Source: an uncultured Bacteroides sp.
GTDB lineage: Bacteria; Bacteroidota; Bacteroidia; Bacteroidales; Bacteroidaceae
Direction of reading: 5' to 3'
Assembly (NCBI GenBank): GCA_949292025.1
Contig: CASEYC010000097.1
Location: forward strand, 24,342-88,341
Length of the DNA stretch: 64,000 bases
Made by a program: the position numbers and the translations under genes
In this document: positions 8,721 to 30,629 of the stretch, one piece after another
Layout: each line of letters starts with the position of its first letter
Position numbering within the stretch: position 1 is the stretch's first letter
Notes under the pieces: generated by a model
Seen by the model: the letters and a program-made list of their open reading frames with translations, nothing else
What the model was told of the DNA's origin: nothing
Databases searched by the model: none

Positions 8721-8735
8721 TACCTGTTTTCCCTT

Positions 8736-8743
8736 TAATTTTG
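8736..8743 (+). promoter_or_regulatory. Bacteroidota -7 box TAATTTTG
   Basis: Exact TAnnTTTG match 12 nt upstream of the ATG at 8755. Confidence 0.4.
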
Positions 8744-8754
8744 TACACCTGTTT

Positions 8755-11315: not shown

Positions 11316-11765
11316 ATGAAGAAGAAAGTGATTTGGGGCACGCTGATAGTCGTGCTGGTATTGGTGGCGGTCATCAAGGGCAGAAGCTTGTCGGCCTATG
11401 TGGCGGGGGCATGGTTGGAATCGGCAAAAGAGCGCGCGGCAGAGGCCGATGTGCTTAGCTTCCGGTATGCCGGGATTGACTCCCTGTATGAGCGGGAGCG
11501 GTATGCTTATTTCCTGTTTGCCGAAGACCATTCGGCTGGGCAAAGCGACGGTCTGTCCGCCCGCATGGATTCGCTGTTGGTCATCACCTGCGGCGCAGGG
11601 CCGGCTTGGCTGAAGGAAACGGAGGCGGACACCGTGCGTCTGCCCCTCTCGGCATTTGATTTCTGCTTGAAAGAGAATCAATCCATGCAGTTATACCGGG
11701 TGGCCGGCGTGTCGGCAGGCACGGACGGAAACTTGTACCGGTTGAGTAAGATGGTTGTGGAATGA
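11316..11765 (+). CDS. Hypothetical membrane-anchored protein
   Basis: MKKKVIWGTLIVVLVLVAVIKG N-terminal anchor. No recognisable domain. Ends 6 nt before the next gene. Confidence 0.55.
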   Translation: MKKKVIWGTLIVVLVLVAVIKGRSLSAYVAGAWLESAKERAAEADVLSFRYAGIDSLYERERYAYFLFAEDHSAGQSDGLSARMDSLLVITCGAGPAWLKETEADTVRLPLSAFDFCLKENQSMQLYRVAGVSAGTDGNLYRLSKMVVE

Positions 11766-11771
11766 TGGCTT

Positions 11772-12818
11772 ATGTTTAGACAACTCCTTTGTTTTGCCAG
11801 TGTGTGCGCTGCCCTTTGGCTGGCCTCTTGTTCAGTACCATCTTCTTCTGACAATTGGACGGTGGATTTGCTTCATGCGAATGTTGATACCATAGATTAT
11901 TCGACATTTGTCGATTCTGTCAGCTATATACCCTTGGAGGTCTCCGACGAGTGTTTGGTCGGTAAAGTGACTGATGTCATCCTGGCTGATGGGCGTTTGT
12001 TCGTGTTCGATGACAAGCAGCAGGAAATATGGATGTTCAACAGTTCGGGCAAGTACTTGGGCAAACTGGGCCGCAGGGGGGAGGGTCCCGGCGAATACTT
12101 CCATATCGCGCAGGTGGAATATGACCGGCGGGAAAAATTGCTTGCCGTCCTGACGTTCAAGGAAGCTCCCTGTGTGCTGTATTATGCCTTGGACGGCACC
12201 TATGTCAAGTCTGTGGAGTTGGGTATCCAGGCCGATGATTTCAAGATTTGCCCGGACGGCGGTTTCATCCTGTCGTGCGCAGGCCAGGATACCCCGTCCG
12301 CCGGTGTGTATGTGGCCGATGCTGCCGGGGGAAACGTGCGTCCTTTGGTGAAGCGTGCGCCCAATCACTTGGTCTATACGACTTTCGAGTGGGAGTTGTG
12401 TTCCTATAACGATGTCATTTGTTTCCAAGCACCTGTCTTTGCCAATGAAGTGTACCATTGGCAAGGCGATTCTTTGCAGTTGGCATACCCTTTCCGCATG
12501 ATTCCCGAGTTGGGCCAGGACTACGAAGCGACTGTATCCTTGCAGCACATGACGGATTACATCCGCACGAATTACGTGGAGGGAGAAAGATGGATTTACG
12601 CCACCTATTGGTCTGCGGATCCGGACAGGGATTTGCGTGTATGGCTGTATTCGAAGTCGGATGGTAAATCCTGGGTGGGCAAAGGGCTGCGTAACGACAT
12701 GGATGCACGTGGCTCGGCAGCCTGGACCTCGTTCACGGACGGGAATGTGTTTGTCTTGAGCGAAGAGCCGGAAAATCCGGATGACAATCCGGTGATTCGG
12801 ATTCTCCATTTGAAGTGA
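11772..12818 (+). CDS. 6-bladed beta-propeller lipoprotein (BF3164-like family), paralog 1
   Basis: Lipobox ALWLASC. GRRGEGPGEY motif is shared with the 19365 paralog (GGGPGELY). C-terminal DDNPVIRILHLK tail is shared with paralog 3. Confidence 0.7.
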   Translation: MFRQLLCFASVCAALWLASCSVPSSSDNWTVDLLHANVDTIDYSTFVDSVSYIPLEVSDECLVGKVTDVILADGRLFVFDDKQQEIWMFNSSGKYLGKLGRRGEGPGEYFHIAQVEYDRREKLLAVLTFKEAPCVLYYALDGTYVKSVELGIQADDFKICPDGGFILSCAGQDTPSAGVYVADAAGGNVRPLVKRAPNHLVYTTFEWELCSYNDVICFQAPVFANEVYHWQGDSLQLAYPFRMIPELGQDYEATVSLQHMTDYIRTNYVEGERWIYATYWSADPDRDLRVWLYSKSDGKSWVGKGLRNDMDARGSAAWTSFTDGNVFVLSEEPENPDDNPVIRILHLK

Positions 12819-12899
12819 GAAACTATAAGGATCCCTCCTTTTCGCGTAAGCCTGGATGACAATCCCGTCCTGGTGGAAGTGTTTATGAAACCCGGTTGA
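12819..12899 (+). pseudogene. Orphan 3' tail of a beta-propeller-lipoprotein paralog
   Basis: Short frame ...RVSLDDNPVLVEVFMKPG* resembles the C-terminal tails ...PDDNPVIRILHLK* (12818) and ...ADDNPVLALFQLK... (20606). No start codon and no N-terminal body. Confidence 0.4.
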
Positions 12900-13028
12900 T
12901 ATATCCTACGTGTTTTTTGTCCGGGAGGACGGGTTGTATATCAGTCGTGATTGCCAGATGCTTTATGGCAACCAGTCGGATGATTATATGACGTTTGAAC
13001 GGATGGAGCTGGTCAGGAAGGTCGACTG
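12889..13028 (+). pseudogene. Orphan 3' fragment duplicating the end of the 15919..17073 gene
   Basis: 12907..13007 matches 16951..17051 with 4 mismatches in 101 nt (by eye). Encodes YVFFVREDGLYISRDCQMLYGNQSDDYMTFERME. Frame is blocked upstream by TGA at 12886..12888. Confidence 0.75.
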
Positions 13029-13036
13029 ATGGATTG

Positions 13037-13124
13037 GGTTCCGGGTATCTGGAACTGAGTGTTCCGGGCATCTGAAACATTAGGTTCCAGGTATCTGGAA
13101 CCGAGTGTTCCAAGCCCTTGGAAC
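13037..13124. repeat. Tandem array of 4 hairpin-type units, 23-bp period (GTTCC-N-GGAAC family)
   Basis: gttcc at 13038, 13061, 13084 and 13107, each followed by ggaac/gaaac 8-13 nt later. Confidence 0.85.
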
Positions 13125-13200
13125 GGAAGGCGCACGCCCGCGTGTCCGGCTACAGTTGTATAAACTCTTCCTGCGCATTTCATGGTCTGTGTTTTATTTG

Positions 13201-13208
13201 TACCTTTG
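13201..13208 (+). promoter_or_regulatory. Bacteroidota -7 box TACCTTTG
   Basis: Exact TAnnTTTG match 27 nt upstream of the ATG at 13235. Confidence 0.5.
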
Positions 13209-13234
13209 TGCCGTGAACTTAAATTGGTATACCT

Positions 13235-14860
13235 ATGAGAAATTTATGTGGCCTTCTGCTCCTTTTCTGTCTGTTTTCAGCTTGCTCAGGCGGGGGAAGC
13301 CATTCGCGGACGTTGCTTGCGCGTGCCGATTCGTTGTTGGATGTGCAGGCGGACAGCGCATTGCGCCTGTTGCGGCAGGTCTCGCCCCGTCGGTTGGCGG
13401 ACAGGGACGAGCGGATGTATTATGCCCTGCTGTTGTTGCAAGCCAAGTACAAGAACTTCCTCCCGATGACAGGGAGCGATTCGTTGCTGCGCGAGGTGGC
13501 TTCCTACTATGCCCGTACGGGCGATGCCGCCATGCAGGCGCGTGCCTGCTACCTCTTGGGCGGGGTGTACGCCGAACGGCAGGAGGCAGACCGCGCCTTC
13601 AGGGCCTATCACGAAGCGGAACAGTTGGCCCGGCGGGCGGAGGACGGGCGGATTTTGTGCCTGGTGCTCAACCAGTTGGCGCACCTTTGCCTGAACCATG
13701 GCATGGCGGCGCGGGGCGACTCCTTGTATGTGGAGTCCGGACGGCTGGCGCGGCAGGTGGGGGACAGCGTGCGCTGGGCGGAAGCATTGTTGCGCCGGGG
13801 AGTGTATGCCTTGTCACTGGGGGATAGTGCCCACTCCCGGGCAGAACGGCTGATAGAAGAGGGGTACGGACTGGCGCGGCGGTTGCGGTCTGCACGGCTG
13901 TTGCAAATGGCGTATCTCACCCGAAGCGTGTTCTATGGTAATTCCGGGCGAGCTACGCAAGCGTTGGCCGAGGCTAAGGGGTATTTAGAGAATATGCGGG
14001 CAGATTCTGTCGGTTTGGCACGTGCTTATTGCTTGTTGGGAGGCACTTATTTTCAAATGCAGTGGTATGATTCAGCAGAGGTTTATTTGCGTCGGGGCTT
14101 GCTTGCTGGTGATTATGACACAAAGGAAATAGCCTGTGCCTTGTTGGCACGCATTGCCACTTCTCAAGGAGATCAGGAACAGGCTACAGAATGGGAAAAG
14201 CAAAGTTTGGAAAACAAAGTCAAACGGCAAGCTTTGGTGCAGGAGACTAATATGGCTGTGGTTGCCAAGGTGGTTGAACTGGAATCGGTTTTGAGGACCC
14301 GTGATGCCAAGATATATAGGTTGTCTTGGGGCACTGTGATCCTTGTCCTGTTGTTGGGCGGTTGCAGTGTGGTCCTGTGGCTTGTTTGGCGGAAGAAGCG
14401 GAATGTACAACTGCCTGTCAGGCCAATTCCTTCCGAAACGGAAAGGCTGGAAGTTGAGCCAAGTGGGTGGGATTATTTGGCGTTCGGGCAACGAATGAAA
14501 GAGACCGGTTCGTATCGGTTGTTGGTATCCATTTTGGATTATTATAAGAAGCATGCCGACTATGAGCGGCATTGGGACATGAACAAACAGTATGATTTTT
14601 TCAAGCAGGTGGATGTCTTGCTTCCCGGGCATCGGACAGCATTACAGATGCGTTTCCCCGGATTGGAGGAGGGGGAGGTTTTCTGTTGTTACCTGTATAT
14701 GTTGGGACTTTCGGACGAACAAGTTGGCATATTGCTCGAAAGGAACAGAAGTACGACCTACCGAAGACGCAAGTCTATGATGCAGAATGAAATGGGGCTG
14801 GCTACCACAAAGTTGGAGCATTTGGTGCAGGCTTGCCAAATAGTTCCAGAGGTGCACTGA
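13235..14860 (+). CDS. Membrane-tethered regulator: lipoprotein signal + TPR region + single TM + C-terminal HTH
   Basis: Lipobox LFCLFSAC. TPR-like repeats. TM LSWGTVILVLLLGGCSVVLWLVW (about 14324..14389) followed by RKKR. C-terminal LGLSDEQVGILLERNRSTTYRRRKSMMQ looks like an HTH. Same architecture as the 39049 gene. Confidence 0.65.
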   Translation: MRNLCGLLLLFCLFSACSGGGSHSRTLLARADSLLDVQADSALRLLRQVSPRRLADRDERMYYALLLLQAKYKNFLPMTGSDSLLREVASYYARTGDAAMQARACYLLGGVYAERQEADRAFRAYHEAEQLARRAEDGRILCLVLNQLAHLCLNHGMAARGDSLYVESGRLARQVGDSVRWAEALLRRGVYALSLGDSAHSRAERLIEEGYGLARRLRSARLLQMAYLTRSVFYGNSGRATQALAEAKGYLENMRADSVGLARAYCLLGGTYFQMQWYDSAEVYLRRGLLAGDYDTKEIACALLARIATSQGDQEQATEWEKQSLENKVKRQALVQETNMAVVAKVVELESVLRTRDAKIYRLSWGTVILVLLLGGCSVVLWLVWRKKRNVQLPVRPIPSETERLEVEPSGWDYLAFGQRMKETGSYRLLVSILDYYKKHADYERHWDMNKQYDFFKQVDVLLPGHRTALQMRFPGLEEGEVFCCYLYMLGLSDEQVGILLERNRSTTYRRRKSMMQNEMGLATTKLEHLVQACQIVPEVH

Positions 14861-14868
14861 ACGTGCGA

Positions 14869-14938
14869 ATGCAACAAATGCAACACCGGAAAATGGCTCG
14901 CTTGGTGAAAATGCAACAAAGATGCAACAAATGCAAAG
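14869..14938 (+). promoter_or_regulatory. Five direct copies of ATGCAA(C/A)A just upstream of a -7 box
   Basis: Copies at 14869, 14878, 14911, 14922 and 14931. They lie between the regulator stop (14860) and the TAACTTTG box (14952). Confidence 0.5.
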
Positions 14939-14951
14939 CCTGAAATTGCAC

Positions 14952-14959
14952 TAACTTTG
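14952..14959 (+). promoter_or_regulatory. Bacteroidota -7 box TAACTTTG
   Basis: Exact TAnnTTTG match 46 nt upstream of the ATG at 15006. Confidence 0.45.
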
Positions 14960-15005
14960 CGCCAAATTCAAGAAGGATGATTGTTTCACTTAAAAATACA
15001 ATAAG

Positions 15006-15386
15006 ATGAAAAATTTAGTAATTGCTTTTTTAGTATGCTTGAGTCTCCCGTTGGGCATTTGTCATGCGGAAGAGAAGGAGTCTGAAACGGAACAGGAGCC
15101 CATACACCTTGAAAGATTAATTTGGGGTGAGCCTCCTACACGTTCTTTGCAACCGGCAGTGCCGGAGGCTTATGTGTGCGGTAGCGAAGTGAACGTCACG
15201 TTTGACGAACCGGTGTCGTATGTCAACGTCAGCATCTGCAAGGCAATCAGTGACGAGCCGGTCTATGAGACGGCATATACCTATGCTGCCGATGTATGCA
15301 TTGATTTGTCCGCTTGGGGCAAAGGCAATTATGTGATTTATCTGGAGACGGAAACCGCTGTCTATAAGGGCAGCTTTTCGTTGTGA
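15006..15386 (+). CDS. Small secreted protein (DUF3244-like, from memory)
   Basis: Signal peptide MKNLVIAFLVCLSLPLGICHA. About 100-aa beta-rich body ending ...YLETETAVYKGSFSL. Confidence 0.5.
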   Translation: MKNLVIAFLVCLSLPLGICHAEEKESETEQEPIHLERLIWGEPPTRSLQPAVPEAYVCGSEVNVTFDEPVSYVNVSICKAISDEPVYETAYTYAADVCIDLSAWGKGNYVIYLETETAVYKGSFSL

Positions 15387-15409
15387 GTGTGCTATGTAAA
15401 GTGTAAAAA

Positions 15410-15461
15410 GGAGGCACCCGGCACCGTTTATTTGTTGGCGCAAATGAAGGCCGGGTGCTCC
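15410..15461 (+). terminator. Inverted repeat (12 bp + 1 bulge, 27-nt loop) after the 15006 gene
   Basis: ggaggcacccggc pairs with gccgggtgctcc. No adjacent T-tract, so terminator function is uncertain. Confidence 0.3.
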
Positions 15462-15504
15462 GTAACCACCTAAAAAAGAAAGGAGGTGCGCCAAAGGTAC
15501 GAAT

Positions 15505-15512
15505 TAAGTTTG
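15505..15512 (+). promoter_or_regulatory. Bacteroidota -7 box TAAGTTTG
   Basis: Exact TAnnTTTG match 84 nt upstream of peptide gene 1. Confidence 0.4.
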
Positions 15513-15595
15513 AAAGGGCAATGCGGTTGTCCTGTCCGTTGAAAGGATATATACGGAGAAAAAATCGAAATTTTAAAACTTAAAATGAAGAAAAA

Positions 15596-15823
15596 ATGAA
15601 AAAGAAAGCAGTAAGAATAGCCCTGCTTGCCGTGGTTGCAGCGGTGGCAGGATATGGAGCTTATCAGGCTCAAATGGAAGATGAAATGGTGTCGGATTTG
15701 GCGTTGGCTAATGTGGAGGCGTTAGCTGCTGGAGAAGACGGTTGGAATTGTCGCATAGATTTAGATTACACACATTATTGCAATTATTATGATTATGGTT
15801 CTTTGTGTCCTTGCGGATTTTAA
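15596..15823 (+). CDS. NVEALA-family small precursor peptide 1 (75 aa, 4-Cys C-terminal core)
   Basis: MKKK + hydrophobic helix, then the literal motif VSDLALANVEALA. Followed by AGEDGWNCRIDLDYTHYCNYYDYGSLCPCGF. Confidence 0.8.
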   Translation: MKKKAVRIALLAVVAAVAGYGAYQAQMEDEMVSDLALANVEALAAGEDGWNCRIDLDYTHYCNYYDYGSLCPCGF

Positions 15824-15918
15824 TGGATAGATATAACGTGGATGGATGTGCCAAGATTGGGATTCAATATCATATAAGATTTTGGTACATTCATCTTTCA
15901 TCTTAGTTGTAAATTCGT

Positions 15919-17073
15919 ATGATTAGAGTCATTCTTTTAGTATTTTTGTTGTGTGCGTGTATTTCTTGCAATAAGCGTTCAGAAACAGGGCGTTTGGACA
16001 CGCACGAATTGAGGGCCACTGGCGAAGTAAAGAAATTCGAGTTGGATACGGATGTCCGTTACAATTGCAATTATCTTTATCTGTTCCGGGACAAGGCCGG
16101 GCGTGAATACCTGTCTTTCCTGAACTATCGCACGAATCAAATATACTTTTACGACTGGAGCACGGCGCAGTGTGTGCGCAAGCTGGAACTGAATGCTGAG
16201 GGACCGGACGGGGTGGTCTTGTGTTCCGGCTATTATGTGAAGGACTTTGACAATATCTATGTGACGACTTATGCCTATAAGGGACTGATACGTGTGGACA
16301 CGACCGCTCATATTGTGCAGAAGATTCCTTATGGTGTGACGCAGGACGGTTATGAGGTGGTGCCTGCTTATGCGCCTTCATCGGTGCACTACAATGCCCC
16401 TGTGATTGTGGGGGACAGCATTTATATTGTGCAACCCCCTTCCCGCTTTTGTCCTGTGGAGCAGACTCCCCTGTCGGTCGTGATAGACACGGCGCGGCAT
16501 CAGTGCACGTCGTTCCCGCTCACGTACGAAGTATTGACAGACAAGGAGATGTCGACCAATTATTATTCTGTTTTCAGCCGCATATTCGACGGGGAGAATT
16601 TTATCTACTCTTTTGCGGTGAAGGAGGACATCCTTGTCGTCTCGCCGGACCACCGGCGTGTGGAGCCGATAAGGGTCAAGAGCCGTTACTTGGACGATGT
16701 GACGGACGTGCAGGAGAACTCGTCTGCCGGTCCCAAACTGAATCTGGAGTATCCCCGCTATGGCGATTTGATCTATGACCCCTACCGGGAGGTCTATTAC
16801 CGTTTTGCCTATCCTCGGGTGGAGTTGGAGAATGATATGAACTGGTGGGGAAAAGCCTTGTTCGGACGTAAAAAATTCTCGGTAATTATCCTGGATAAGG
16901 ACTTCCGGACTATCGGCGAGACCTTGTTTCCTGAATCCGTCTACAATTCCTACGTGTTTTTTGTCAGGGAGGACGGTTTGTATATCAGTCGTGATTACCA
17001 GATGCTTTATGGCAATCAGTCGGATGATTATATGACGTTTGAACGGATGGAATTGATTGGGAAAGACAACTGA
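15919..17073 (+). CDS. Beta-propeller-type lipoprotein, paralog 2 (BF3164/DUF4221-like, family assignment tentative)
   Basis: Lipobox LLCACISC. 384 aa and beta-rich. Its 3' end is duplicated at 12907..13007. Confidence 0.6.
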   Translation: MIRVILLVFLLCACISCNKRSETGRLDTHELRATGEVKKFELDTDVRYNCNYLYLFRDKAGREYLSFLNYRTNQIYFYDWSTAQCVRKLELNAEGPDGVVLCSGYYVKDFDNIYVTTYAYKGLIRVDTTAHIVQKIPYGVTQDGYEVVPAYAPSSVHYNAPVIVGDSIYIVQPPSRFCPVEQTPLSVVIDTARHQCTSFPLTYEVLTDKEMSTNYYSVFSRIFDGENFIYSFAVKEDILVVSPDHRRVEPIRVKSRYLDDVTDVQENSSAGPKLNLEYPRYGDLIYDPYREVYYRFAYPRVELENDMNWWGKALFGRKKFSVIILDKDFRTIGETLFPESVYNSYVFFVREDGLYISRDYQMLYGNQSDDYMTFERMELIGKDN

Positions 17074-17104
17074 TATATTTAATTTTTGGAAAGCGTTTTT
17101 TTGT

Positions 17105-17992
17105 ATGGTGAAAAAAGTGTGTATAGTTCTATCGTTATTCTTATTGTTATTGAGTTGTTCATACGTGGATGAACGTGGACAACAAATTGAAAAGATTGTG
17201 AGAGAATGGGAAGGCAAGACGATTATTTTCCCTTCCAACCTGAAATTCATATCCCAAGGGCAAGAAATTCCCTCCTTGCTGGATGGAAATTGGGACTATG
17301 CGATAGTTTCTTACACAGATTCTACTGGGTGTACTAGTTGCAAGTTACAATTAGATAGATGGAAAGATCTGATTGACAGAAGTGATTCTATTTTTGGTAG
17401 GAATATAATTTTCTTGTTTGTTATACATCCATTGGAGCGAGAAGATTTGTTGCGTATGCTGAGAGAGTATAAGTTTGATTACCCAATATGTATAGATGAA
17501 GATAATCTTTTTGATAGACAAAATGATTTACCCGATGATGATTTGTTTCGGACTTTCTTATTAAATAAAAAGAGGAAAGTTGTGGCAATAGGTAATCCTG
17601 TTTATAATCCTAAAATACGTGATTTATATGGGGATGTCATTCAAAATAGGAAACAGAGTAAAATACAATCAGGTAAAGAAGAATTATTTACTAAGGTTTC
17701 AATCTCATCTTTTAGTTTGTCGTTGGGTGGTTTCCCTTGGCAAGAGCCGCAATCCGCCACCCTCACCCTGACGAACACGGGCACCCGCCCCTTGGTCGTC
17801 CAGGACGTGGTCACCTCGTGCGGATGCCTGACGGTGGATTATCCCCGTGAGCCGGTGCGACCGGGCGGCGAGGCCGCGTTGCGCCTGACCTACAAGGCGG
17901 ACAACCCGGGCTACTTCCGCAAGACGGTGACGGTGTATGCCAATGCGGAAGAGGCACCGCTCAGGGTGCAGGTGTCCGGGAATGCGGAATAA
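17105..17992 (+). CDS. Thioredoxin-fold (TlpA-like, CxxC) lipoprotein fused to a C-terminal DUF1573 domain
   Basis: Lipobox LLLLSC at the 17105 start. CTSC motif in YTDSTGCTSCKLQL. C-terminal LTNTGTRPLVVQDVVTSCGCLTVDYP is DUF1573-like. A sharp AT-rich to GC-rich switch near 17745 coincides with the domain boundary. Confidence 0.7.
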   Translation: MVKKVCIVLSLFLLLLSCSYVDERGQQIEKIVREWEGKTIIFPSNLKFISQGQEIPSLLDGNWDYAIVSYTDSTGCTSCKLQLDRWKDLIDRSDSIFGRNIIFLFVIHPLEREDLLRMLREYKFDYPICIDEDNLFDRQNDLPDDDLFRTFLLNKKRKVVAIGNPVYNPKIRDLYGDVIQNRKQSKIQSGKEELFTKVSISSFSLSLGGFPWQEPQSATLTLTNTGTRPLVVQDVVTSCGCLTVDYPREPVRPGGEAALRLTYKADNPGYFRKTVTVYANAEEAPLRVQVSGNAE

Positions 17993-18015
17993 CCCTTTAT
18001 ATGCTCTGAGGCCCT

Positions 18016-18885
18016 ATGTTCCGTTTGCTGTTAAACCGTCTGTTGGACATCTGCTTCTGGCTCTGCGTGGCCTTGGCGGCCTACGTGGTGCTGCAGGTGT
18101 TCGTCATCACGTCGTTCCGCATTCCGTCAGACTCCATGCAGCCCGCCCTGTTGCCGGGTGACCGCATCTGGGTGGACAAGTTGTCCGGCGGCGCCCGCCT
18201 GTTCGACCTGTTGGGCGCGGCGGAGGGCGAGGACGTGCGCATCCGGCGCGTGCCGGGCTGGCGGAAGTTCCGGCGGGGCGACGTGCTGGTGTTCAACTTC
18301 CCCTACGGCGAGGGCCGGTGGGACAGCATCGCGCTGGACGTGATGAAGTACTACGTGAAGCGTTGCATCGCCGTGCCGGGCGACACGCTGGAGATTCGCG
18401 GCGGGTGGTACCGCATCCGCGGGGTGGACGCCCCCCTGGGCAACCCGGCGGCGCAGCGGGAGATAGCCCAACTGCCGGACAGCGGGGCGCCGGGCGTGGT
18501 GATGGAGACCTATCCTTGGAACAAGCGCCTGGGCTGGACAATCAAGGAGTTCGGCCCGCTGGTGGTGCCCCGCCGGGGGCAGACGGTGCGGATGGACAGC
18601 ACGGCGTGCCGCCTCTACCGCAACTTGGTGAACTGGGAGCAGAAACGCCCCCTGCATATCGACCGGGACGGGCGCACGTGGTTGGGCGACAGCCTGATAA
18701 CGCACTACACCTTCCGCGAGGACTACTACTTCGTGGGCGGCGACAAGGCCCTGAACTCGCAGGATTCCCGCTACTGGGGGCTGCTGCCCGGGCCGTACAT
18801 CGTGGGCCGCGCCTGGCGCGTGTGGTGGTCGGAAGACGCGGACGGACGGGTGAGGTGGGACCGGGTTATGAATAAGATAATGTAG
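18016..18885 (+). CDS. lepB: Signal peptidase I (S26 family)
   Basis: N-terminal TM. Catalytic Ser box IPSDSMQPALLPGD. Lys box YVKRCIAVPGD. GDKALNSQDSRYWG. Confidence 0.85.
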   Translation: MFRLLLNRLLDICFWLCVALAAYVVLQVFVITSFRIPSDSMQPALLPGDRIWVDKLSGGARLFDLLGAAEGEDVRIRRVPGWRKFRRGDVLVFNFPYGEGRWDSIALDVMKYYVKRCIAVPGDTLEIRGGWYRIRGVDAPLGNPAAQREIAQLPDSGAPGVVMETYPWNKRLGWTIKEFGPLVVPRRGQTVRMDSTACRLYRNLVNWEQKRPLHIDRDGRTWLGDSLITHYTFREDYYFVGGDKALNSQDSRYWGLLPGPYIVGRAWRVWWSEDADGRVRWDRVMNKIM

Positions 18886-18895
18886 AAAACGATAT

Positions 18896-18912
18896 AAGCA
18901 TTTTGAGATTTG
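18896..18912. repeat. Left arm of a perfect 17-bp inverted repeat bracketing peptide gene 2
   Basis: aagcattttgagatttg is the exact reverse complement of 19338..19354. Confidence 0.95.
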
Positions 18913-18953
18913 GTGAAGTTGATAATGATTAATTTAATATTTAAGTGAAGAAA

Positions 18954-19325
18954 ATGAAAAGAAAATTTGTTTATGTAGTATTTATTGCTGCTGTAGCGGC
19001 AATGGCGGTTTTTAACGTCAATTTATTAGTAAAAAATAATGTGAGTGATTTGCCTTCTTCCTTATTGGAATTGGAAGCTTTGGCTGAAGAGGAAAAGCAT
19101 GAGTGGAACGATTGGCCTTTATTTGGATCGCAAGGTTTTACTAAAGATGAGCGGGAAGAAAAAAGGCCCTGTCCCATAATAGAATCGGGAAGCGGAAATG
19201 TAAATGGTTCGTATGGTGGAGGTTCCGTAGGAGGCGGAGGCTCTCATTCACAAGTAAATCCCAACGAGAGATATGAAATAATATGTCCTTATGGTTATTC
19301 CAATTGCACATCCATAGGTTGTTAA
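18954..19325 (+). CDS. NVEALA-like small precursor peptide 2 (123 aa from ATG; Gly-rich, 4-Cys core)
   Basis: MKRKFVYVVFIAAVAAMAV anchor. VSDLPSSLLELEALA leader motif. Core contains PCP...GGGSVGGGGS...ICPYGYSNCTSIGC. Confidence 0.7.
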   Translation: MKRKFVYVVFIAAVAAMAVFNVNLLVKNNVSDLPSSLLELEALAEEEKHEWNDWPLFGSQGFTKDEREEKRPCPIIESGSGNVNGSYGGGSVGGGGSHSQVNPNERYEIICPYGYSNCTSIGC

Positions 19326-19337
19326 AATGAAGGAACG

Positions 19338-19354
19338 CAAATCTCAAAATGCTT
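19338..19354. repeat. Right arm of the 17-bp inverted repeat
   Basis: caaatctcaaaatgctt, 10 nt before the ATG at 19365. Confidence 0.95.
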
Positions 19355-19364
19355 TTAGAAGATA

Positions 19365-20606
19365 ATGGTTATGATTAGATTGTTAGTAGTATTTGCAGCC
19401 CTTGTGCTGTGCTTGTCTGGATGTGGCGGAGGCTCCCGGCAAGGATTCAACTTTACTGCCTCCGAGATAGCATCCCTTTGTTTGGATTCCACGGAACTTC
19501 TGCCGGCGGATGTGTCTTCCGCTGTGCGCGTGGATTTGAACCCGTTCCTGGGGGACAAGGAGTTTGAGTTTGGAAACTTGGTCCGTTCTTTGCGTTTCAT
19601 CCCGCTGGAAACAACTGATGCCAGCCTGTTGGCCAACATCTACAAGGTGGTGCTGACGGACCGTCATGTCTACGTGCATGACGACTTCAAGGGTGGAGGC
19701 CTTGTGATCTTTACTTCCAAGGGCAAGTTTGTCCGTCGCATTTCCCATGGCGGCGGGCCGGGCGAGTTGTACCAGTTGTCGGACATGGCGTATGACCCGT
19801 CCACGGACCGCCTGTTGGTTTACCAGCACCCGTTCTTGCTTTTTTATACAGCAGATGGGGAATACCTGGAGCAGAAGAAGTTGCCGTTTGGCTTCTACAA
19901 TTTCCAGCCTATCCCCGGCGGCTATGTGTTCAAGACGATAGACGGCGTGGGCAACCATCATTTGGGTGCAAAGCAGGACTATACGCTCCTGGTGACCGAC
20001 ACGACTTTCAGGCTGAGGCAGGCGGCACTTCCCGTCGCGCCGGACAAAACGCATTTTGGGGGATACCGTTATTTGTATGATGCCGAGGACGGTATCCGTG
20101 TGACCGGCAAATTCAACGATACCATCTATTGTTACGACCCCCTGCGCCATGACTTGGCGGCTGCGTGCGTGCTCGATTATTCCGACAAGAAACTGCCGGA
20201 CTCCCAAGTGAAGGACCCGCGGGGCGAGTTCACGGACATTTTGATGGGCAATGACTATTATTATTTCCTGGGTGAATGTTTGGAGACTCCTTCCCACCAG
20301 GTCTTTTTCTTGCGCAACGACTGGCGGAGACACAGGTTGGTGGTGTATCGGGACAAGCAGACGGGTGGAATGACCGGTGGCGCGACCTATCATTTTGACT
20401 TCCATGTGCTCCCTCCTGTGGGGTTCCCCAGGGCGACATACGGTGACAACTTCGTTTCTTTGCATTATCCCAATCCTCAGGATTCGTGCCTGCAATCCAG
20501 TCCTTTGATTTCGCCGGAGGATAAGCGGATGATAGCCGGGTTGAAGGCGGATGATAATCCTGTTTTGGCGTTGTTCCAGCTGAAAAGTATAGACGGGCAT
20601 GAATAA
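19365..20606 (+). CDS. 6-bladed beta-propeller lipoprotein, paralog 3
   Basis: Lipobox LVLCLSGC. GGGPGELY motif. C-terminal ADDNPVLALFQLK tail. Confidence 0.7.
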   Translation: MVMIRLLVVFAALVLCLSGCGGGSRQGFNFTASEIASLCLDSTELLPADVSSAVRVDLNPFLGDKEFEFGNLVRSLRFIPLETTDASLLANIYKVVLTDRHVYVHDDFKGGGLVIFTSKGKFVRRISHGGGPGELYQLSDMAYDPSTDRLLVYQHPFLLFYTADGEYLEQKKLPFGFYNFQPIPGGYVFKTIDGVGNHHLGAKQDYTLLVTDTTFRLRQAALPVAPDKTHFGGYRYLYDAEDGIRVTGKFNDTIYCYDPLRHDLAAACVLDYSDKKLPDSQVKDPRGEFTDILMGNDYYYFLGECLETPSHQVFFLRNDWRRHRLVVYRDKQTGGMTGGATYHFDFHVLPPVGFPRATYGDNFVSLHYPNPQDSCLQSSPLISPEDKRMIAGLKADDNPVLALFQLKSIDGHE

Positions 20607-21210
20607 ATTCCTGTGGATAGTGGCAGTAGTACTGCTGGTGATGAATGCCGTACTGGGTATCAATTACTGGCAGTATAAAAGGCAGGCTTCATTCCGATTG
20701 CAAGTGTTGCAGGGGGATATGAAGAGTTTGATACCCTTGCAAGAGAACTGGGAAAGTGCGATGGGTAATGATGGATATAGGCTTGATGGCATTCAAGGTA
20801 AGGATACGAATCATAACCTTGTGGGTTTGAATGAAATGTTTCTCAATCATGAGGATAAGATTCTGGTCTGCCGTTTTTCTGAATTGGATTGCGAAAGTTG
20901 TATAGACTATGCCATTAAGAGTATGAAAGAGTATAGTGCCCGGATGGGCATAGAGAACATTCTTTATTTAGGGAATTATCGGAATAACCGGATTTTTAAT
21001 CGTCAAAGAGCAATGTGTGGCATTGATTCATGCAGGTCTTTGAATGTTGCGAAGTTGGGACTTCCCATAGAGGATTTGAATCAGCCTTATTATTTCGTAC
21101 TGGACAGTTCTTTGCTCGTATCCAATGTTTTTATTCCAAATAAAACCACTCAAAGGATGTTGAATACATATTTTGATGTATTGTGTGACAAGTATTTTGC
21201 AGAGGAATAA
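20599..21210 (+). CDS. Membrane-anchored thioredoxin-fold protein (CxxC)
   Basis: N-terminal TM FLWIVAVVLLVMNAVLGI. CESC motif in CRFSELDCESCIDYAI. AT-rich. Overlaps the previous gene by 8 nt. Confidence 0.6.
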   Translation: MNKFLWIVAVVLLVMNAVLGINYWQYKRQASFRLQVLQGDMKSLIPLQENWESAMGNDGYRLDGIQGKDTNHNLVGLNEMFLNHEDKILVCRFSELDCESCIDYAIKSMKEYSARMGIENILYLGNYRNNRIFNRQRAMCGIDSCRSLNVAKLGLPIEDLNQPYYFVLDSSLLVSNVFIPNKTTQRMLNTYFDVLCDKYFAEE

Positions 21211-21222
21211 AAATTAAGTGAG

Positions 21223-23139
21223 ATGAACATACGGATGAGCTTATACGGATGTGTTTTGCTTACTCTGCTGGCCGCCTGCTCCTCCCCCTTGGACAGCCGC
21301 GTGTCCTCCGTCTTGGACTTTGCCGGCGACAACCGCGGCGAGCTGGAGGCCGTCCTGGACCACTACCGGGACGACCCGGAGAAGCAGCACGCCGCCCGCC
21401 TGCTGATAGCGGAGATGGAAGGGGCGTACTATTATGACGCGCCGGAGGTGGACAGCCTGAGGGCTGTGGTGAGGGACACCCGCTGGGCGGCCACCACGCC
21501 GGACCCGGAGCGGGCGGCGCGGTGGAAGGCGTTCGACTACCGGACGCTGCCCAAGCAGTATGACGCGCGGACACTGACGGCGGACTACCTGACGGAACAC
21601 ATCGACCGCGCGTTCGAGGCGTGGCGCAAGTGGCCTTGGGGCAGGCATTACACCTATGGGGACTTCTGCCGCTATATCCTGCCCTACCGCATCGGCGACG
21701 AGACGCCCGACCGCTGGATGGGGAGGTATGCCGATTACTTCGGCCACCTGCTGGACTCGCTCCACGTGGGCAACGACCCGGTGGTGGCGGCGGACACGGC
21801 GATGCGCCACATCGCGAAGCTGAGGTACTTCTATATGGCGGAATATGACACGCCCCACCTGGGGGCATCGCACCTGCTGGAAGTGCGGTCCGGTGGTTGC
21901 CGCGAGCATACGGACCTGCTGGTGTATGTGTTCCGTTCGCTGGGCATCCCGGCGACGAAAGATATGTTCCTCTGTGCGCCCGACTTCCGGCAATCGCACA
22001 CCTGGGCCGTGCTGAAGGACACCACGGGCCGCTTCATCCCCGTGGAGCTGACGGAGAACAAGGCGCCCAGGAACCTGCGCGGCTGGCAGAACCGCCGCAA
22101 CAAAGGCAAGGTCTACCGCCTGCACAACCTGCGGCTGGAGACGCCGGACTTCGCGGGCGACTATCATCGTGAAGACGTGACAGCCGAGTATTATTCTGCC
22201 AACCGGGTGGAAGTGCCCGGCGTGGAGACCGGCGGCGACGGCGTGCTGGCCGTGTTTGCATCGGAGGGCTGGAGACCGGTGGGCGGCTACCGCAAGCGGT
22301 GGGGCAAGGCCGTGGTGGAGAATGTGCAGGAAGGGATGGTTTTCCAGCCCCTGGCCGTGCGGGACGGGCAACTGCGCGAGAGTGGTTGGTCCTTCTTCGT
22401 GCGCGAAGGCCGGGCCGTGGTGCTAAGGCCGGACACGGCGCGGCGCGTCAGGGTGAGGCTGACGCGGAAATACCCCATTGGGTGGCGGCTGAAGGAGCGG
22501 CTGGACCAGGTGGCGGGCAACTGGCTGGAGGGCAGCAACGACCCGGCTTTCCGGACGGCGGACAGCCTGGACCGGGTGGACGGCAGCCGCATGGACGTGC
22601 TGGGGCGTTGTCTGTCCGTGCCTGCGGGCAGGGTTTACCGCTATCTGCGCTTATGGCCCGCCCCGGGGCGCGTGGTACACCTGGCCGAGCTGGAGTGTTT
22701 TGCCGACACGCTGGGACGGGAGCCGTTGCCCTATCGCATCGTGTCGTGCGGCACGCCCAATTATCTGGTGTCGGGCACGCAGTGGCCGGAGCATTTGCAC
22801 GATGGCGATGTCCTGAGCGTGTATCGGACCCAAGAGCGGGACGTGCCCGTGGTGGTGGACTTCGGATGTCCCGTGCCTTTGCGTGCCGTCGTGCTGACAC
22901 CGCACAACGATGACAACTTTGTGCGCCGGGGCGAGACCTACGAGCTGTTCTACCAAGACGGCGTGAACGGGTGGACTTCGCTGGGGCGGCAGGTGGCGGC
23001 GACTGGCTATTTGGAGTATGACAATGTGCCGGACAACGCCCTGCTGTGGCTGCGTGACCTGACGAAGGGGCGCGAGGAACAGGTGTTCCGCTGGGTGGAC
23101 GGACAGCAAGTATTCTTGGGGACGATGAAGGGAGGATGA
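21223..23139 (+). CDS. Transglutaminase-like (Cys-protease fold) lipoprotein with large C-terminal extension
   Basis: Lipobox LLTLLAAC. Core motif RSGGCREHTDLLVYVFRSLGIPA with downstream QSHTWAV. The C-terminal half may be discoidin-like (not verified). Confidence 0.7.
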   Translation: MNIRMSLYGCVLLTLLAACSSPLDSRVSSVLDFAGDNRGELEAVLDHYRDDPEKQHAARLLIAEMEGAYYYDAPEVDSLRAVVRDTRWAATTPDPERAARWKAFDYRTLPKQYDARTLTADYLTEHIDRAFEAWRKWPWGRHYTYGDFCRYILPYRIGDETPDRWMGRYADYFGHLLDSLHVGNDPVVAADTAMRHIAKLRYFYMAEYDTPHLGASHLLEVRSGGCREHTDLLVYVFRSLGIPATKDMFLCAPDFRQSHTWAVLKDTTGRFIPVELTENKAPRNLRGWQNRRNKGKVYRLHNLRLETPDFAGDYHREDVTAEYYSANRVEVPGVETGGDGVLAVFASEGWRPVGGYRKRWGKAVVENVQEGMVFQPLAVRDGQLRESGWSFFVREGRAVVLRPDTARRVRVRLTRKYPIGWRLKERLDQVAGNWLEGSNDPAFRTADSLDRVDGSRMDVLGRCLSVPAGRVYRYLRLWPAPGRVVHLAELECFADTLGREPLPYRIVSCGTPNYLVSGTQWPEHLHDGDVLSVYRTQERDVPVVVDFGCPVPLRAVVLTPHNDDNFVRRGETYELFYQDGVNGWTSLGRQVAATGYLEYDNVPDNALLWLRDLTKGREEQVFRWVDGQQVFLGTMKGG

Positions 23140-23146
23140 GGCCGGA

Positions 23147-24748
23147 ATGAAGAAAGGAATGACGATAGCAGGGTGGGGACTGGCGGCAGGTTTGCTGCTC
23201 TCGCTGGTCTGTGCCGATGACCCGACGCTGCCTTCCGGCGAGACTGTGGGGCAGTGGCTGTGGTTCGACCGGGCGGCGTTGTGTGCGGCGGCCTGCATCG
23301 GGCTGGGGTGCTGCTTCTGGCGGTGGGCGAAAGGCCCGGCGTTGGCGGCGGCAGTCTCGTGGGCCTTGGTGGGCTGGGCGGCGGTGCAGGCGGTCGTCGG
23401 GTTGGGCCAGTTGTATGGCTTTTCTGTTTCCGGCCATGCGCTCTATGCGTTGACGGGCAGCTTTTTCAATCCCGGACCCTATTCCGGCTATCTGGCGATG
23501 GCCCTGCCCGTGTGTTTGCACGAATACCTGTGCTGCCGGGACCGGTCGTCGGTGGGACGCTATGCGGCGGGGCTGTCCGGTCTGCTTATCCTCAGCGTGT
23601 TACCGGCGGGCATGAGCCGTTCGGCCTGGCTGGCGGCGGCTGTGTCGTGCCTGTGGGTGTACGGGTGCCATGCCGGTTGGGGCAGGCGGCTGCGGGCGTT
23701 CCGGCTGCGGAGGCCGGCTGTCTTCTGGGGCGCGGTGGGCGGCGTGCTGGCCTTGGCCTGTCTGTCCAGCCTGCTGCTGTACCAGTTGAAGCCCGATTCG
23801 GCTTTGGGGCGCCTCTTTATGTGGCGGATGTCCCTCCGTGCCGTGGCGGAACAGCCATGGACGGGGCACGGGACCGATGGATTTGCCGCTGCATACGGCG
23901 AAGCGCAGGAGGCTTATTTTGCCGCTGGCGGCTATGCCTCGTGGGAAGAGCGCGTGGCAGGCAGTCCGGAATATGCTTTCAACGAGTACTTGCAGGCGGT
24001 GGTGGAGCTGGGCGTGCCGTTGACCCTGTTGCTGCTGGCGGTGTTGTCTTGGGGCTGGTTCCGGGGGCTGCGGGCGGGGCGGCTGGGCTGTTGCGGGGCT
24101 TTGCTGTCGTTGGGTGTTTTCGCCTGTTCGTCCTATCCGCTGCAGTTGCCCGTGTTCGTCGTGACGGGGGCTTGCCTGTGGGCGGCTTGCGTGTGCAGCG
24201 GCAGTTGGCGTGGCTGGTTGGCGGTGGCCGTGGTGGCCGGGGGCATGGGCGCGTGGCGCCTGTCCAATGACCGGGCGGGGGTGGCGGCTTGCCGGGAATG
24301 GATGAATGCGCGGGTGTTGTATCAGGCGGGGGCGTATGCCTCGGCTGAAAAGGAATATGCGCGGCTGTATCCGGTGCTGAAGGACCGGGCGGCGTTCCTC
24401 TTCGAATACGGGCACGGGCTGCACCGGCAGGAGAAACATGCGGCCTCCAACCGGATTCTGGCCGAGGCCCTGCAACGCAGTTGCGACCCGATGATCCTGA
24501 ACGTGATGGGGAAGAACTTCCAGGCCTTGGGCGACGGGCGGCAGGCGGAGCACTGCTTCCTGCGGGCAGTCCACCGCTTGCCGGGGCGGATTTATCCGTA
24601 CTACCTGCTGGCCCGGTTGTATGCTTCGCCGATGTACCGCAATCCGGAGAAGCTGGCGAGGATGAAGCGGGTGGTGCTGACTAAGACGCCGAAAGTGGAG
24701 TCTGCGGCCATCCGGGAAATGCGGGAGGAAGTGGAGAAACTGGAGTGA
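23147..24748 (+). CDS. O-antigen-ligase (Wzy_C)-like polytopic membrane protein with C-terminal TPR domain
   Basis: About 10 hydrophobic segments. Loop motif PEYAFNEYLQAVVELGVP resembles the Wzy_C signature. C-terminal TPR-like repeats (YQAGAYASAEKEYARLY...). Confidence 0.65.
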   Translation: MKKGMTIAGWGLAAGLLLSLVCADDPTLPSGETVGQWLWFDRAALCAAACIGLGCCFWRWAKGPALAAAVSWALVGWAAVQAVVGLGQLYGFSVSGHALYALTGSFFNPGPYSGYLAMALPVCLHEYLCCRDRSSVGRYAAGLSGLLILSVLPAGMSRSAWLAAAVSCLWVYGCHAGWGRRLRAFRLRRPAVFWGAVGGVLALACLSSLLLYQLKPDSALGRLFMWRMSLRAVAEQPWTGHGTDGFAAAYGEAQEAYFAAGGYASWEERVAGSPEYAFNEYLQAVVELGVPLTLLLLAVLSWGWFRGLRAGRLGCCGALLSLGVFACSSYPLQLPVFVVTGACLWAACVCSGSWRGWLAVAVVAGGMGAWRLSNDRAGVAACREWMNARVLYQAGAYASAEKEYARLYPVLKDRAAFLFEYGHGLHRQEKHAASNRILAEALQRSCDPMILNVMGKNFQALGDGRQAEHCFLRAVHRLPGRIYPYYLLARLYASPMYRNPEKLARMKRVVLTKTPKVESAAIREMREEVEKLE

Positions 24749-25962: not shown

Positions 25963-26011
25963 GGAATGAAGAATACCATTAACCATTGATCATTAGCCAT
26001 TAACCATTATT
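25950..26011. repeat. Two abutting heptad tracts: GAATGAR x3-4, then CATTRRY x5, ending 2 nt before the RND ATG
   Basis: gaatgaa/gaatgag/gaatgaa/gaatacc, then cattaac/cattgat/cattagc/cattaac/cattatt. Confidence 0.85.
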
Positions 26012-26013
26012 AT

Positions 26014-29130: not shown

Positions 29131-29144
29131 AGAATTATACGTTT

Positions 29145-30623: not shown

Positions 30624-30629
30624 GCGGAT

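Follow-up and report, generated by a model that had tools for sequence, protein, structure and literature searches.

NVEALA-leader peptides and their beta-propeller partners in a conserved Bacteroidales gene cluster: a candidate pathway for periplasmic peptide maturation and export

We describe a gene cluster at positions 11,316 to 24,748 of a 64,000-nucleotide stretch of DNA from an uncultured Bacteroides sp. (assembly GCA_949292025.1, contig CASEYC010000097.1, positions 24,342 to 88,341), hereafter the window, whose numbering is used throughout. The cluster encodes two small Cys-rich precursor peptides of the NVEALA type together with beta-propeller lipoproteins, thiol-disulfide proteins, a signal peptidase I of the S26 family, a transglutaminase-fold lipoprotein and a polytopic Wzy_C protein, and the same set recurs across the Bacteroidales. 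Conservation of the gene set, the anatomy of the precursors, their bias towards even numbers of Cys, the intact active sites of the predicted enzymes and a natural fusion of the S26 and transglutaminase-fold proteins together argue strongly, at the level of comparative sequence analysis, for a dedicated maturation pathway. The locus may thus represent a widespread peptide-weapon or peptide-signal system of gut bacteria.

Gene content of the locus

In the open reading frame (ORF) list of the window, all substantial ORFs between 11.3 and 33.8 kb lie on the + strand, with intergenic gaps of at most 116 nt from the peptide 1 gene (15596) onward (Table 1), which bears out the co-directional, tightly spaced gene string described in a sequence-only reading of the same DNA. 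Every gene call of that reading is supported by a profile hidden Markov model (HMM) or a structural model, the 203-aa CxxC protein being the weakest. Thus, the three beta-propeller lipoproteins, the S26 peptidase inside the string, the transglutaminase-core lipoprotein and the Wzy_C-like protein matched their families. Of the two NVEALA peptides, the first scored well above the family cut-off; the second fell below it and shares the anatomy and context of the first. Likewise, one of the two CxxC proteins called as thioredoxin folds is backed by a model, Foldseek and a match to StoA, the other being plausible with weak matches, and of the membrane-tethered TPR-HTH (helix-turn-helix) regulator the TPR and transmembrane (TM) parts stood, with weak DUF6377/SusR-like matches in the C-terminal domain.

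Table 1. Features of the locus and its immediate surroundings in the window.
Feature	Position	Strand	Evidence or remark
Small signal-anchored protein, 2 Cys, no NVEALA motif	11316..11765	+	Directly 5' of propeller gene
'Orphan' six-bladed beta-propeller lipoprotein (DUF5128/DUF4934)	11772..12818	+	PF17170 5e-37; lipobox ...LASC
3'-end remnant of DUF4221 propeller gene, non-coding	12904..13035	+	132-nt direct repeat, 89% identical to 16948-17079
Membrane-spanning regulator: lipoprotein signal, periplasmic TPR, one TM, cytoplasmic C-terminal domain (SusR/DUF6377-like)	13235..14860	+	TPR_8; weak DUF6377, BT3442 and SusR matches
DUF3244 secreted protein	15006..15386	+	PF11589 2e-9
NVEALA precursor peptide 1	15596..15823	+	PF14055 3e-13, 49.7 bits vs cut-off 27
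Putative cognate beta-propeller lipoprotein of peptide 1 (DUF4221)	15919..17073	+	PF13970 2e-42
TlpA/ResA-like thioredoxin domain (CTSC) fused to DUF1573 Ig-like domain (CGC); lipoprotein	17105..17992	+	PF07610 1e-27
Predicted cluster-specific signal peptidase I (S26)	18016..18885	+	PF10502 (Peptidase_S26) 1e-28; TIGR02227 95.7 bits vs 47
Perfect 17-nt inverted repeat bracketing peptide 2 gene	18896-18912 and 19338-19354	.	20 nt at 95%; ends of 487-bp segment
Divergent NVEALA-type precursor peptide 2	18954..19325	+	PF14055 0.0016, 18.5 bits, below cut-off 27
Putative cognate beta-propeller lipoprotein of peptide 2 (DUF5128)	19365..20606	+	PF17170 2e-28
Membrane-anchored CxxC protein (CESC), 203 aa	20599..21210	+	Invariant C98, C101, P163
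Transglutaminase-fold Cys-His lipoprotein, beta-sandwich and discoidin-like C-terminal domains	21223..23139	+	PF01841 24.3 bits vs 23
Polytopic Wzy_C (O-antigen-ligase/PglL superfamily) protein, TPR-like tail	23147..24748	+	PF04932 2e-16, 60.5 bits vs 31.7
Tripartite efflux operon	24865..33827	+	MFP 24865-25962, RND 26014-29130, OEP 29145-30623, second RND 30630-33827

One leader and many cores

Peptide 1 comprises a signal anchor, the motif SDLALANVEALA and a 31-aa core with four Cys, and peptide 2 has the same anatomy, with the motif ELEALA and a 79-aa, Gly/Ser-rich core that also has four Cys. Across 240 unique peptides the consensus is a Lys-rich, N-in signal anchor, then (M/L)SDLALA-N-V/I-E-A-L-A-x-G-E, a Gly/Ser linker and the core, with the motif residues conserved at 97% (N), 100% (E), 99% (A), 97% (L) and 99% (A), and the E at +3 at 80%. 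Cores have a median length of 38 aa and are rich in Gly, Ser, Cys and Tyr (7.4% Tyr); the number of Cys per peptide is even in 201 of the 240, odd in 36 and zero in three. Between paralogues of one locus, leader DNA is 83–95% identical as against ~50% for core DNA. A search with peptide 1 against 1.8 billion cluster representatives returned 335 clusters at 50% identity, most of which align with residues 1–50, the leader; a polyketide synthase and a repeat protein among the matches were discarded as spurious. Nine other core types from related loci likewise matched PF14055 (37–58 bits) via the leader only, and no Pfam family besides NVEALA matched the peptides or cores, which fall into 57 clusters among 238 non-redundant peptide–propeller pairs. 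Judged from these alignments, NVEALA peptides have the anatomy of leader/core precursors and, like bacteriocin arrays and libraries of ribosomally synthesised and post-translationally modified peptides (RiPPs), combine 'one leader, many cores'.

Peptide 2 belongs to a divergent-leader subclass that is always followed by a propeller and a CxxC protein; the 203-aa CxxC gene is in turn always third in such a peptide–propeller–CxxC triple. The core type of peptide 2 is also present in two further loci, L055 and L018, where a propeller and the 203-aa CxxC gene again lie behind it. The exact peptide 2 sequence was found on one other contig only; contigs that encode an identical peptide 1 came from 34 blocks of the collection. 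Degenerate motifs were also noted in small ORFs that have a signal anchor, NVEALS in L003 (5592–5846, 84 aa) and ANIEAFSA in L029 (4348–4635, 94 aa), and the peptide family extends beyond what PF14055 captures.

Conservation of the gene set in Bacteroidales

A scan anchored on S26, with one genome per species, recovered 80 loci at 41–74% identity, in which partner families were identified with home-made HMMs built from the window proteins and iterated on six-frame ORFs of the loci (flanks of up to 10 kb). Co-occurrence was counted in the 54 species-level loci with at least 6 kb on each side of S26. NVEALA peptides were detected in 50 of these, propellers in 52, Trx/DUF1573 proteins in 47, transglutaminase-like proteins in 50 and Wzy_C proteins in 51. 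All five partner families were present in 44 of the 54, so that the neighbourhood picked out in the sequence-only reading does recur in other genomes. Genes for a membrane fusion protein (MFP) and a resistance-nodulation-division (RND) pump were found in 27. The loci are distributed over Bacteroides, Phocaeicola, Mediterranea, Parabacteroides, Tannerella, Proteiniphilum, Massilibacteroides, Paludibacter and Dysgonomonadaceae. Gene order varies among them, TG–S26–Wzy (TG, transglutaminase-fold) being the commonest core, and several genomes have two to five loci each (four or five in B. timonensis, three in B. intestinalis). The cluster occurs in most species sampled, often in several copies and with several peptide–propeller pairs per locus.

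The closest species representative is Candidatus Bacteroides avicola (74% S26 identity). The same gene set, RND operon included, accompanies S26 orthologues (55–68% identity) in a genome resembling Bacteroides helcogenes and in a lineage that is abundant in the human gut. When the scan was reversed, by searching metagenomes with an eight-sequence alignment of the peptide leader as anchor, most long loci again contained the propeller, Trx-DUF1573, transglutaminase-like, S26 and Wzy genes. The gene set is not a chance juxtaposition.

Propeller lipoproteins and their pairing with peptide cores

As the sequence-only reading had stated, each peptide gene in the window lies within 100 nt of a propeller gene, the gaps being 95 nt for peptide 1 and 39 nt for peptide 2. 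Among 386 peptide genes across the loci, the next gene encodes a propeller in 284 and a Trx-DUF1573 protein in 37, nearly all of one core type. Moreover, when propellers located behind same-cluster cores of different loci are compared pairwise, their median score is 83 bits, versus 0 across clusters. By this measure of sequence similarity, the type of a core predicts which type of propeller follows it, and peptide and propeller are cognate pairs.

The propeller at 15919–17073 has a relative of known structure (PDB 3s9j, 6e-23), and the one at 11772–12818 carries an NHL-type GxGPGE motif and has no NVEALA gene upstream. In 165 DUF5128/TolB-like members only one NHL-type motif, GxGPxE, is conserved, and no conserved His/Cys/Ser/Asp catalytic set was found among them. 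Whether a lipoprotein is placed at the surface or in the periplasm can be judged by the published lipoprotein export signal rule. Since 199 of the 224 detected lipoprotein signals have zero or one acidic residue in the five positions after the lipid Cys, this rule suggests that the propellers face the periplasm. Beside S26–Wzy in L023 (1909–9880) and L026 (3148–7833), four to six propeller genes follow one another in an array in which no peptide gene was detected, an arrangement reminiscent of orphan immunity arrays.

Strain variation at the locus

Six metagenome contigs (L001–L006) are ~99% identical to the window, from which they depart at cassette boundaries. A 487-bp segment containing peptide 2 is missing from all of them, and a separate, clean deletion of 510 bp has removed the CxxC gene in frame. 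The propeller gene at 19365–20606, located between the two deletions, is intact in L001–L006 (410 aa, 98.8% identical). In L003, two extra peptide–propeller pairs and an upstream regulator replace the DUF3244 gene, and another conspecific strain has one extra propeller. Retention of the propeller when its peptide is lost suggests an immunity-like binder rather than a maturation factor, and loss of the peptide with retention of its partner is, by analogy, a pattern typically seen in toxin–immunity systems.

The window has no further copy of the perfect 17-nt inverted repeat at the ends of the 487-bp segment (two matches versus 0.01 expected), and in a comparison with 169 other loci the repeat was found only in L170, a contig with the same cassette. 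Going by its sequence and position, the repeat could mark the edge of a cassette that is mobile or invertible, or form a long-range RNA stem. Further upstream, the non-coding remnant of a DUF4221 propeller gene points to a past cassette deletion or recombination, as a scar of turnover.

Predicted processing enzymes

The protein encoded at 17105–17992 (Trx-DUF1573) scores 96.3 bits against DUF1573 (cut-off 26.1), and its N-terminal half has no Pfam match. In an AlphaFold2 model built with 28 homologues (predicted local distance difference test score, pLDDT, 89.8), the N-domain matched ResA/TlpA-type proteins in Foldseek at TM-scores of 0.69–0.73, as well as Bacteroides thiol:disulfide interchange proteins, and the DUF1573 domain matched a PapD/ASH-like fold; a profile of the family retrieved StoA from the PDB (2e-4). 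The model thus confirmed a thioredoxin fold of the TlpA/ResA-type extracytoplasmic kind for the N-domain. Among homologues, the CxxC is conserved at 93–95%, the CGC (C240, C242) at 90–91% and the lipobox Cys at 91%, and we predict that the protein is a candidate disulfide oxidoreductase or isomerase. DUF1573 also has selenoprotein members, with UGC in place of CGC (PMC13188914).

For the 203-aa CxxC protein, which has no Pfam match, C98, C101 and P163 were invariant in 12 homologues. Profile searches against the PDB gave weak matches to thioredoxin (0.022) and ResA (0.059), and hhalign placed its CxxC onto that of Trx-DUF1573 with an E-value of 0.006 and a probability of just 6%. It is probably thioredoxin-like, as far as such profiles can tell.

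In the S26 protein, which has one TM segment (residues 12–30), S40 (SDSM), K115 (VKRC) and the box E sequence GDxxxNSxDSRYWG are invariant in 24 orthologues. Its match to the TraF family TIGR02771 (7e-4) falls below the cut-off. By motif and profile, 18016–18885 is a signal peptidase I with an intact Ser/Lys dyad, and its 'second-copy' status is inferred from its membership of a context-specific clade, not from a genome count. This paralogue is a candidate leader peptidase, and we give an even chance to its cutting at the NVEALA motif.

The transglutaminase-fold protein has a conserved Cys226 (99%) and His259 (100%) in 119 homologues, which carry a discoidin domain (PF00754). Its AlphaFold2 model (pLDDT 89.8) comprises a transglutaminase/cysteine-protease core followed by beta-sandwich domains; queried with the model, Foldseek returned a local match to cysteine protease 3isr (probability 1.00) and weak global matches to factor XIII and TG2, confirming the transglutaminase/cysteine-protease core alone. 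Sequence searches of the PDB with this protein and with the Wzy_C protein returned nothing significant. On the strength of the model, we regard it as a candidate second protease or cross-linker. A natural S26–TG fusion was found as a single 938-aa ORF (L171 143–2959, P0307), placed directly before genes for an outer-membrane efflux protein (OEP), an MFP and two RND proteins.

Wzy_C protein, efflux operon and regulators

About 40 residues of the Wzy_C protein, including R158 and R222, are conserved in at least 97% of 81 homologues. Wzy is the commonest immediate neighbour of S26, adjoining 57 of 86 S26 genes. The C-terminal tail is weakly TPR-like, as had been proposed, and a crude hydropathy analysis yielded too few segments to place it. 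The transfer of an undecaprenyl-linked group to the peptide or its partner is a possible role; a protein O-oligosaccharyltransferase of the PglL/PilO type, the activity raised in the sequence-only reading, would attach such a glycan to Ser/Thr. Cores show no enrichment of the Bacteroidetes O-glycosylation sequon, D-(S/T)-(A/I/L/V/M/T), with 11 observed versus 17.6 expected. The excess of sequons in propellers recurs in the S26, transglutaminase-fold and Trx proteins, and because conserved motifs (e.g. the catalytic SDSM) match the sequon pattern, enrichment is confounded; we rejected it as an uninformative test of the Wzy_C role.

Directly downstream lies the tripartite efflux operon. An RND operon follows Wzy in 27 of the 54 full-flank species loci, in Bacteroidaceae, Tannerellaceae and Dysgonomonadaceae. 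From gene context, the MFP–RND–OEP–RND proteins are the likeliest candidate exporter across the outer membrane. With this co-conserved operon downstream, the locus is not 'self-contained' within the limits that the sequence-only reading had drawn.

The TPR regulator of the window, with its TM segment at residues 360–378, belongs to a family found at 23 loci, usually beside Wzy or ahead of a peptide array. A two-TM protein with a weak C-terminal Trans_reg_C (winged-helix) match (e.g. L003 7343–8353 and L007 5538–6620) is encoded directly upstream of the first NVEALA gene, in the same direction or divergently, at 41 of 83 species-level loci and, going by sequence, is probably the locus regulator. 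The two-TM protein is absent from the window, where the TPR regulator occupies that position, and present in the conspecific strain L003. At 13026–13117, ~120 nt upstream of the TPR regulator gene, a 23-nt unit (CTGGAACTGAGTGTTCCGGGCAT) is repeated in tandem about four times, each copy with a GGAAC...GTTCC palindrome; these repeats may form an operator array. Terminator-like sites were not above shuffled level in a scan for sigma-70 promoters and terminators, which is uninformative for Bacteroides.

A model for the locus and its alternatives

We propose that Sec would insert the precursor with its core in the periplasm, where Trx-DUF1573 would form or shuffle disulfides, joined for some modules by the extra membrane-anchored CxxC protein. 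General disulfide machinery is missing in Bacteroides, and a thiol oxidoreductase is encoded within the bacteroidetocin loci themselves (PMC6671954); the argument made for those loci, that a dedicated oxidoreductase is needed because a general Dsb machinery is lacking, would extend to the present one. The dedicated S26 would then cut at the Ala-x-Ala of NVEALA, with the transglutaminase-fold enzyme trimming the product or making a second cut, and the RND pump would expel the free peptide over the outer membrane, as happens with E. coli heat-stable enterotoxins via a TolC-dependent pump. Finally, the propeller would bind its own peptide in the periplasm, the likeliest purpose being immunity in Bacteroidales antagonism. 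That the peptides are leader-guided, periplasmically matured and disulfide-bonded is the part that we consider probable. The composite model, in which a library of disulfide peptides made from a shared leader is released by S26 and the transglutaminase-fold enzyme, exported by RND and countered by propeller immunity, comes close to an even chance, and antagonism with propeller immunity, considered by itself, is plausible at somewhat below even. The dedicated maturation and secretion pathway envisaged in the sequence-only reading therefore has strong comparative genomics behind it, each of its processing steps being proposed from sequences and models.

Several observations tell against the model. 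The NVEALA motif is located ~20 residues past the hydrophobic segment, canonical signal-peptidase sites being nearer, and cleavage there is argued from the Ala-x-Ala motif and gene context. The S26–TG fusion comes from one contig of one sample, in which an assembly artefact is possible. S26–Wzy persist without detectable peptide genes in L023, and the S26 paralogue was observed alone, with no cluster, in L011 (Candidatus Bacteroides avicola) and L083 (a Parabacteroides distasonis strain), so that S26 may serve other substrates. Conversely, no S26 or Wzy gene lies within 10 kb in seven of 16 full-flank peptide arrays, several of them redundant, which suggests that satellite arrays may be served in trans by the processing genes. 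About half of the loci have no RND operon, and its linkage may partly reflect inherited synteny; the model offers no explanation for Wzy_C-TPR; and a propeller of 350–410 aa is large for the immunity protein of a peptide bacteriocin. Lastly, the 84-aa ORF of L003 and the 94-aa ORF of L029 escaped both Pfam and the custom peptide HMM, and because this HMM misses divergent leaders, counts of 'orphan' propellers are upper bounds.

The peptides might instead be secreted kin or quorum signals that are sensed by the membrane-spanning regulators and that the propellers bind, take up or sequester. In favour of such a role are the regulators encoded immediately before the first peptide gene at 41 of the 83 loci, which are membrane-bound and have a periplasmic domain, and the TPR-type regulators at 23 loci including the window; TPR domains commonly bind peptides. 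Yet a genus has dozens of unrelated core types and a locus has several, which is more than known signalling systems need, and a single regulator per locus is set against many peptide–propeller pairs; retention of the propeller after peptide loss fits eavesdropping and immunity equally. We consider signalling unlikely. A structural role is also conceivable, with NVEALA proteins as uncleaved inner-membrane anchors that hold their cognate propellers in an envelope complex, and S26, the transglutaminase-fold protein and Wzy_C acting elsewhere. In favour of such anchors, each peptide is tightly paired with one propeller and inherited together with it, the distance of the motif from the membrane segment is long for a signal-peptidase site, and S26–Wzy–RND persist in L023 with no peptide gene detected. 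However, the sharp switch at the motif from near-identical leaders to unrelated cores is the signature of a removable leader that shared machinery recognises, the invariant Ala-x-Ala occurs beside a dedicated and catalytically intact S26, and an anchor needs no sequence-specific motif conserved over five families, which makes this reading improbable.

Six-bladed NHL-type propellers include peptidyl-alpha-hydroxyglycine lyase and arylsulfotransferase, and the one-to-one pairing with cores rich in Tyr and Gly could accordingly reflect core-specific tailoring enzymes with RiPP-like chemistry. The 165 propellers nonetheless have a single structural motif in place of a conserved catalytic set, and keeping propellers in strains and arrays that have no peptide would be pointless for a dedicated enzyme; we hold tailoring to be very improbable. 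That there is no system at all, the genes being neighbours by chance or inherited synteny, is barely credible: the families are indeed large and common in Bacteroides, with the RND operon in about half of the loci, but the five partners co-occur in 44 of 54 loci over at least five Bacteroidales families, gene order is rearranged while membership is kept, several genomes have independent copies, and both the reciprocal peptide-anchored scan and the S26–TG fusion link the same genes.

Relation to known systems

No radical SAM, LanM/LanB, YcaO or lasso B/C enzyme was found among Pfam matches of the window genes or among recurrent unannotated families, the leader consensus has no double-glycine site, and no C39 or ABC gene is among the recurrent families of the 80 loci; the usual RiPP and bacteriocin hallmarks are thus absent, as the sequence-only reading had remarked. 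NCBIfam and PADLOC have no specific name for the peptide, propellers, CxxC protein or transglutaminase-fold protein, and a PADLOC run on ten proteins gave no match. A literature search (NVEALA, DUF4221, DUF5128, DUF4934, BF3164, BT0663–BT0668) found no publication describing the locus, in keeping with the earlier statement that no function was known to have been demonstrated for this gene combination, and the system does not appear in the text of a 2025 review of Bacteroidales antagonism. The sole relevant item was a transcriptome table listing B. thetaiotaomicron BT0662–BT0669, a counterpart in which BT0662 is an O-antigen ligase family protein, BT0664 a propeller, BT0667 lepB and BT0669 an RND adaptor.

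Class II bacteriocin loci such as streptococcal blp also combine unrelated small peptides under one leader, in a strain-variable array with partner genes beside shared processing, export and regulatory genes, but they use a double-glycine leader, a C39 peptidase-ABC protein and small membrane immunity proteins in place of the Sec anchor with NVEALA, candidate S26/transglutaminase-fold protease, candidate RND export and 350–410-aa propeller partner found here. Bacteroidetocins (class IIf; PMC6671954) are likewise Bacteroidales peptides with four Cys and a thiol oxidoreductase in the locus; they differ in their 15-aa GG leader, C39-ABC and 5-TM proteins, their lack of an immunity protein, and the absence of S26, propeller, transglutaminase-like and Wzy_C genes, and a Pfam scan of the peptides revealed no similarity between bacteroidetocins and NVEALA peptides. 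Sublancin-type glycocins share a leader peptide, two dedicated oxidoreductases, nested disulfides and, if Wzy_C is a transferase, a glycan-transfer enzyme, although theirs is a cytoplasmic GT2 acting with a nucleotide sugar, followed by C39-ABC export, whereas any transfer here would be periplasmic, lipid-linked and hypothetical. Closest in route are the E. coli STa/STb toxins, with a Sec-dependent pre-pro-peptide, periplasmic disulfides and a TolC-dependent tripartite pump; these rely on housekeeping LepB, DsbA and MacAB-TolC for a single peptide, unlike the co-encoded paralogue per step and the many peptides of the present locus. SipW (Bacillus subtilis tapA-sipW-tasA) and conjugative TraF provide precedents for a second-copy S26 encoded with its substrates, in another subfamily and with other substrates and cellular context. 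Prochlorosins and conopeptides show the same sharp boundary between conserved leader and hypervariable Cys-rich core, with many paralogues, but the lanthionine synthetase or other known RiPP enzyme is absent here and the leader is a membrane anchor. Finally, the orphan immunity gene arrays of Bacteroidales resemble L023, L026 and the propeller at 11772 of the window in having partners without an effector, and in keeping the partner after effector loss; those arrays neutralise type VI effectors, whereas the putative effectors here are Sec-dependent peptides.

Gut Bacteroidales rank with the most intensively studied members of the human microbiota, and the secreted weapons known from them are few: BSAPs, bacteroidetocins, a ubiquitin homologue and type VI effectors. 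Beyond the sequence-only reading, the present analysis adds the RND operon (24865–33827), strain-level cassette variation, the pairing of peptide type with propeller type and the persistence of propellers, in a cluster whose parts are all still 'domains of unknown function'. The locus could fairly be described as a leader-guided secreted peptide locus with an unprecedented set of parts, and as a new class if the mechanism is confirmed. The fuller proposal is a new, Bacteroidales-restricted class of Gram-negative ribosomal peptides, which most gut Bacteroides would have, often in several copies, with a universal NVEALA leader, wholly periplasmic maturation by the dedicated S26, the transglutaminase-fold enzyme, the two-motif oxidoreductase and a Wzy_C-TPR transferase, RND export, and cognate propellers that neutralise or recognise each peptide, forming a diversifying arsenal for peptide–immunity or kin recognition whose dozens of core families would shape competition between strains in the gut; this we advance tentatively, as distinctly less than an even chance. 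If the model for the locus holds, it would give roles to at least six uncharacterised families (NVEALA, DUF4221, DUF5128/TolB_like/DUF4934, DUF1573, the 203-aa CxxC protein and the Wzy_C-TPR clade) and reveal a Sec- and signal-peptidase-based, leader-guided route that RiPP and bacteriocin mining overlooks. It would also make available, as a large natural library, disulfide-rich peptides together with the proteins that bind them, and offer a testable account of strain-level cassette variation in Bacteroides populations. The locus around BT0662–BT0669 is tractable, since genetic tools for B. thetaiotaomicron exist.

Variable genes, base composition and flanks

Two genes of the window lie outside the conserved set. 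The protein encoded at 11316–11765 belongs to a family of 149–163 aa with one N-terminal TM segment and no Pfam or NCBIfam match, seen in just eight loci, and is peripheral, not being conserved past a few loci. The DUF3244 gene, whose place is taken by other cassettes in L003, was confined to this species in the locus scan and is strain-variable filler.

Base composition from 15596 to 24748 is a mosaic, with low GC in the variable genes (0.43 in peptide 1, 0.49 in the DUF4221 propeller, 0.42 in Trx-DUF1573, 0.39 in peptide 2 and 0.39 in the CxxC gene) and 0.65–0.67 in S26, the transglutaminase-fold gene and Wzy, against a background of ~0.58–0.60. Recent horizontal transfer was considered as its source and found unsupported: among the genomes sampled, the DNA of no other species' locus matched at above 75%, and so no recent donor was identified.

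The cluster is flanked upstream (8692–11190) by a gene for a GH95 fucosidase-type glycoside hydrolase, with GH3 and GH2 genes further upstream in related contigs, and downstream (33821–34903, − strand) by a choloylglycine (bile salt) hydrolase family gene. These ordinary chromosomal genes suggest a location on a gut Bacteroidaceae chromosome, not on a mobile element. Further downstream, a PIF1-like helicase with a C-terminal TPR is encoded at 36257–38458 (− strand) and is unrelated to the peptide locus.

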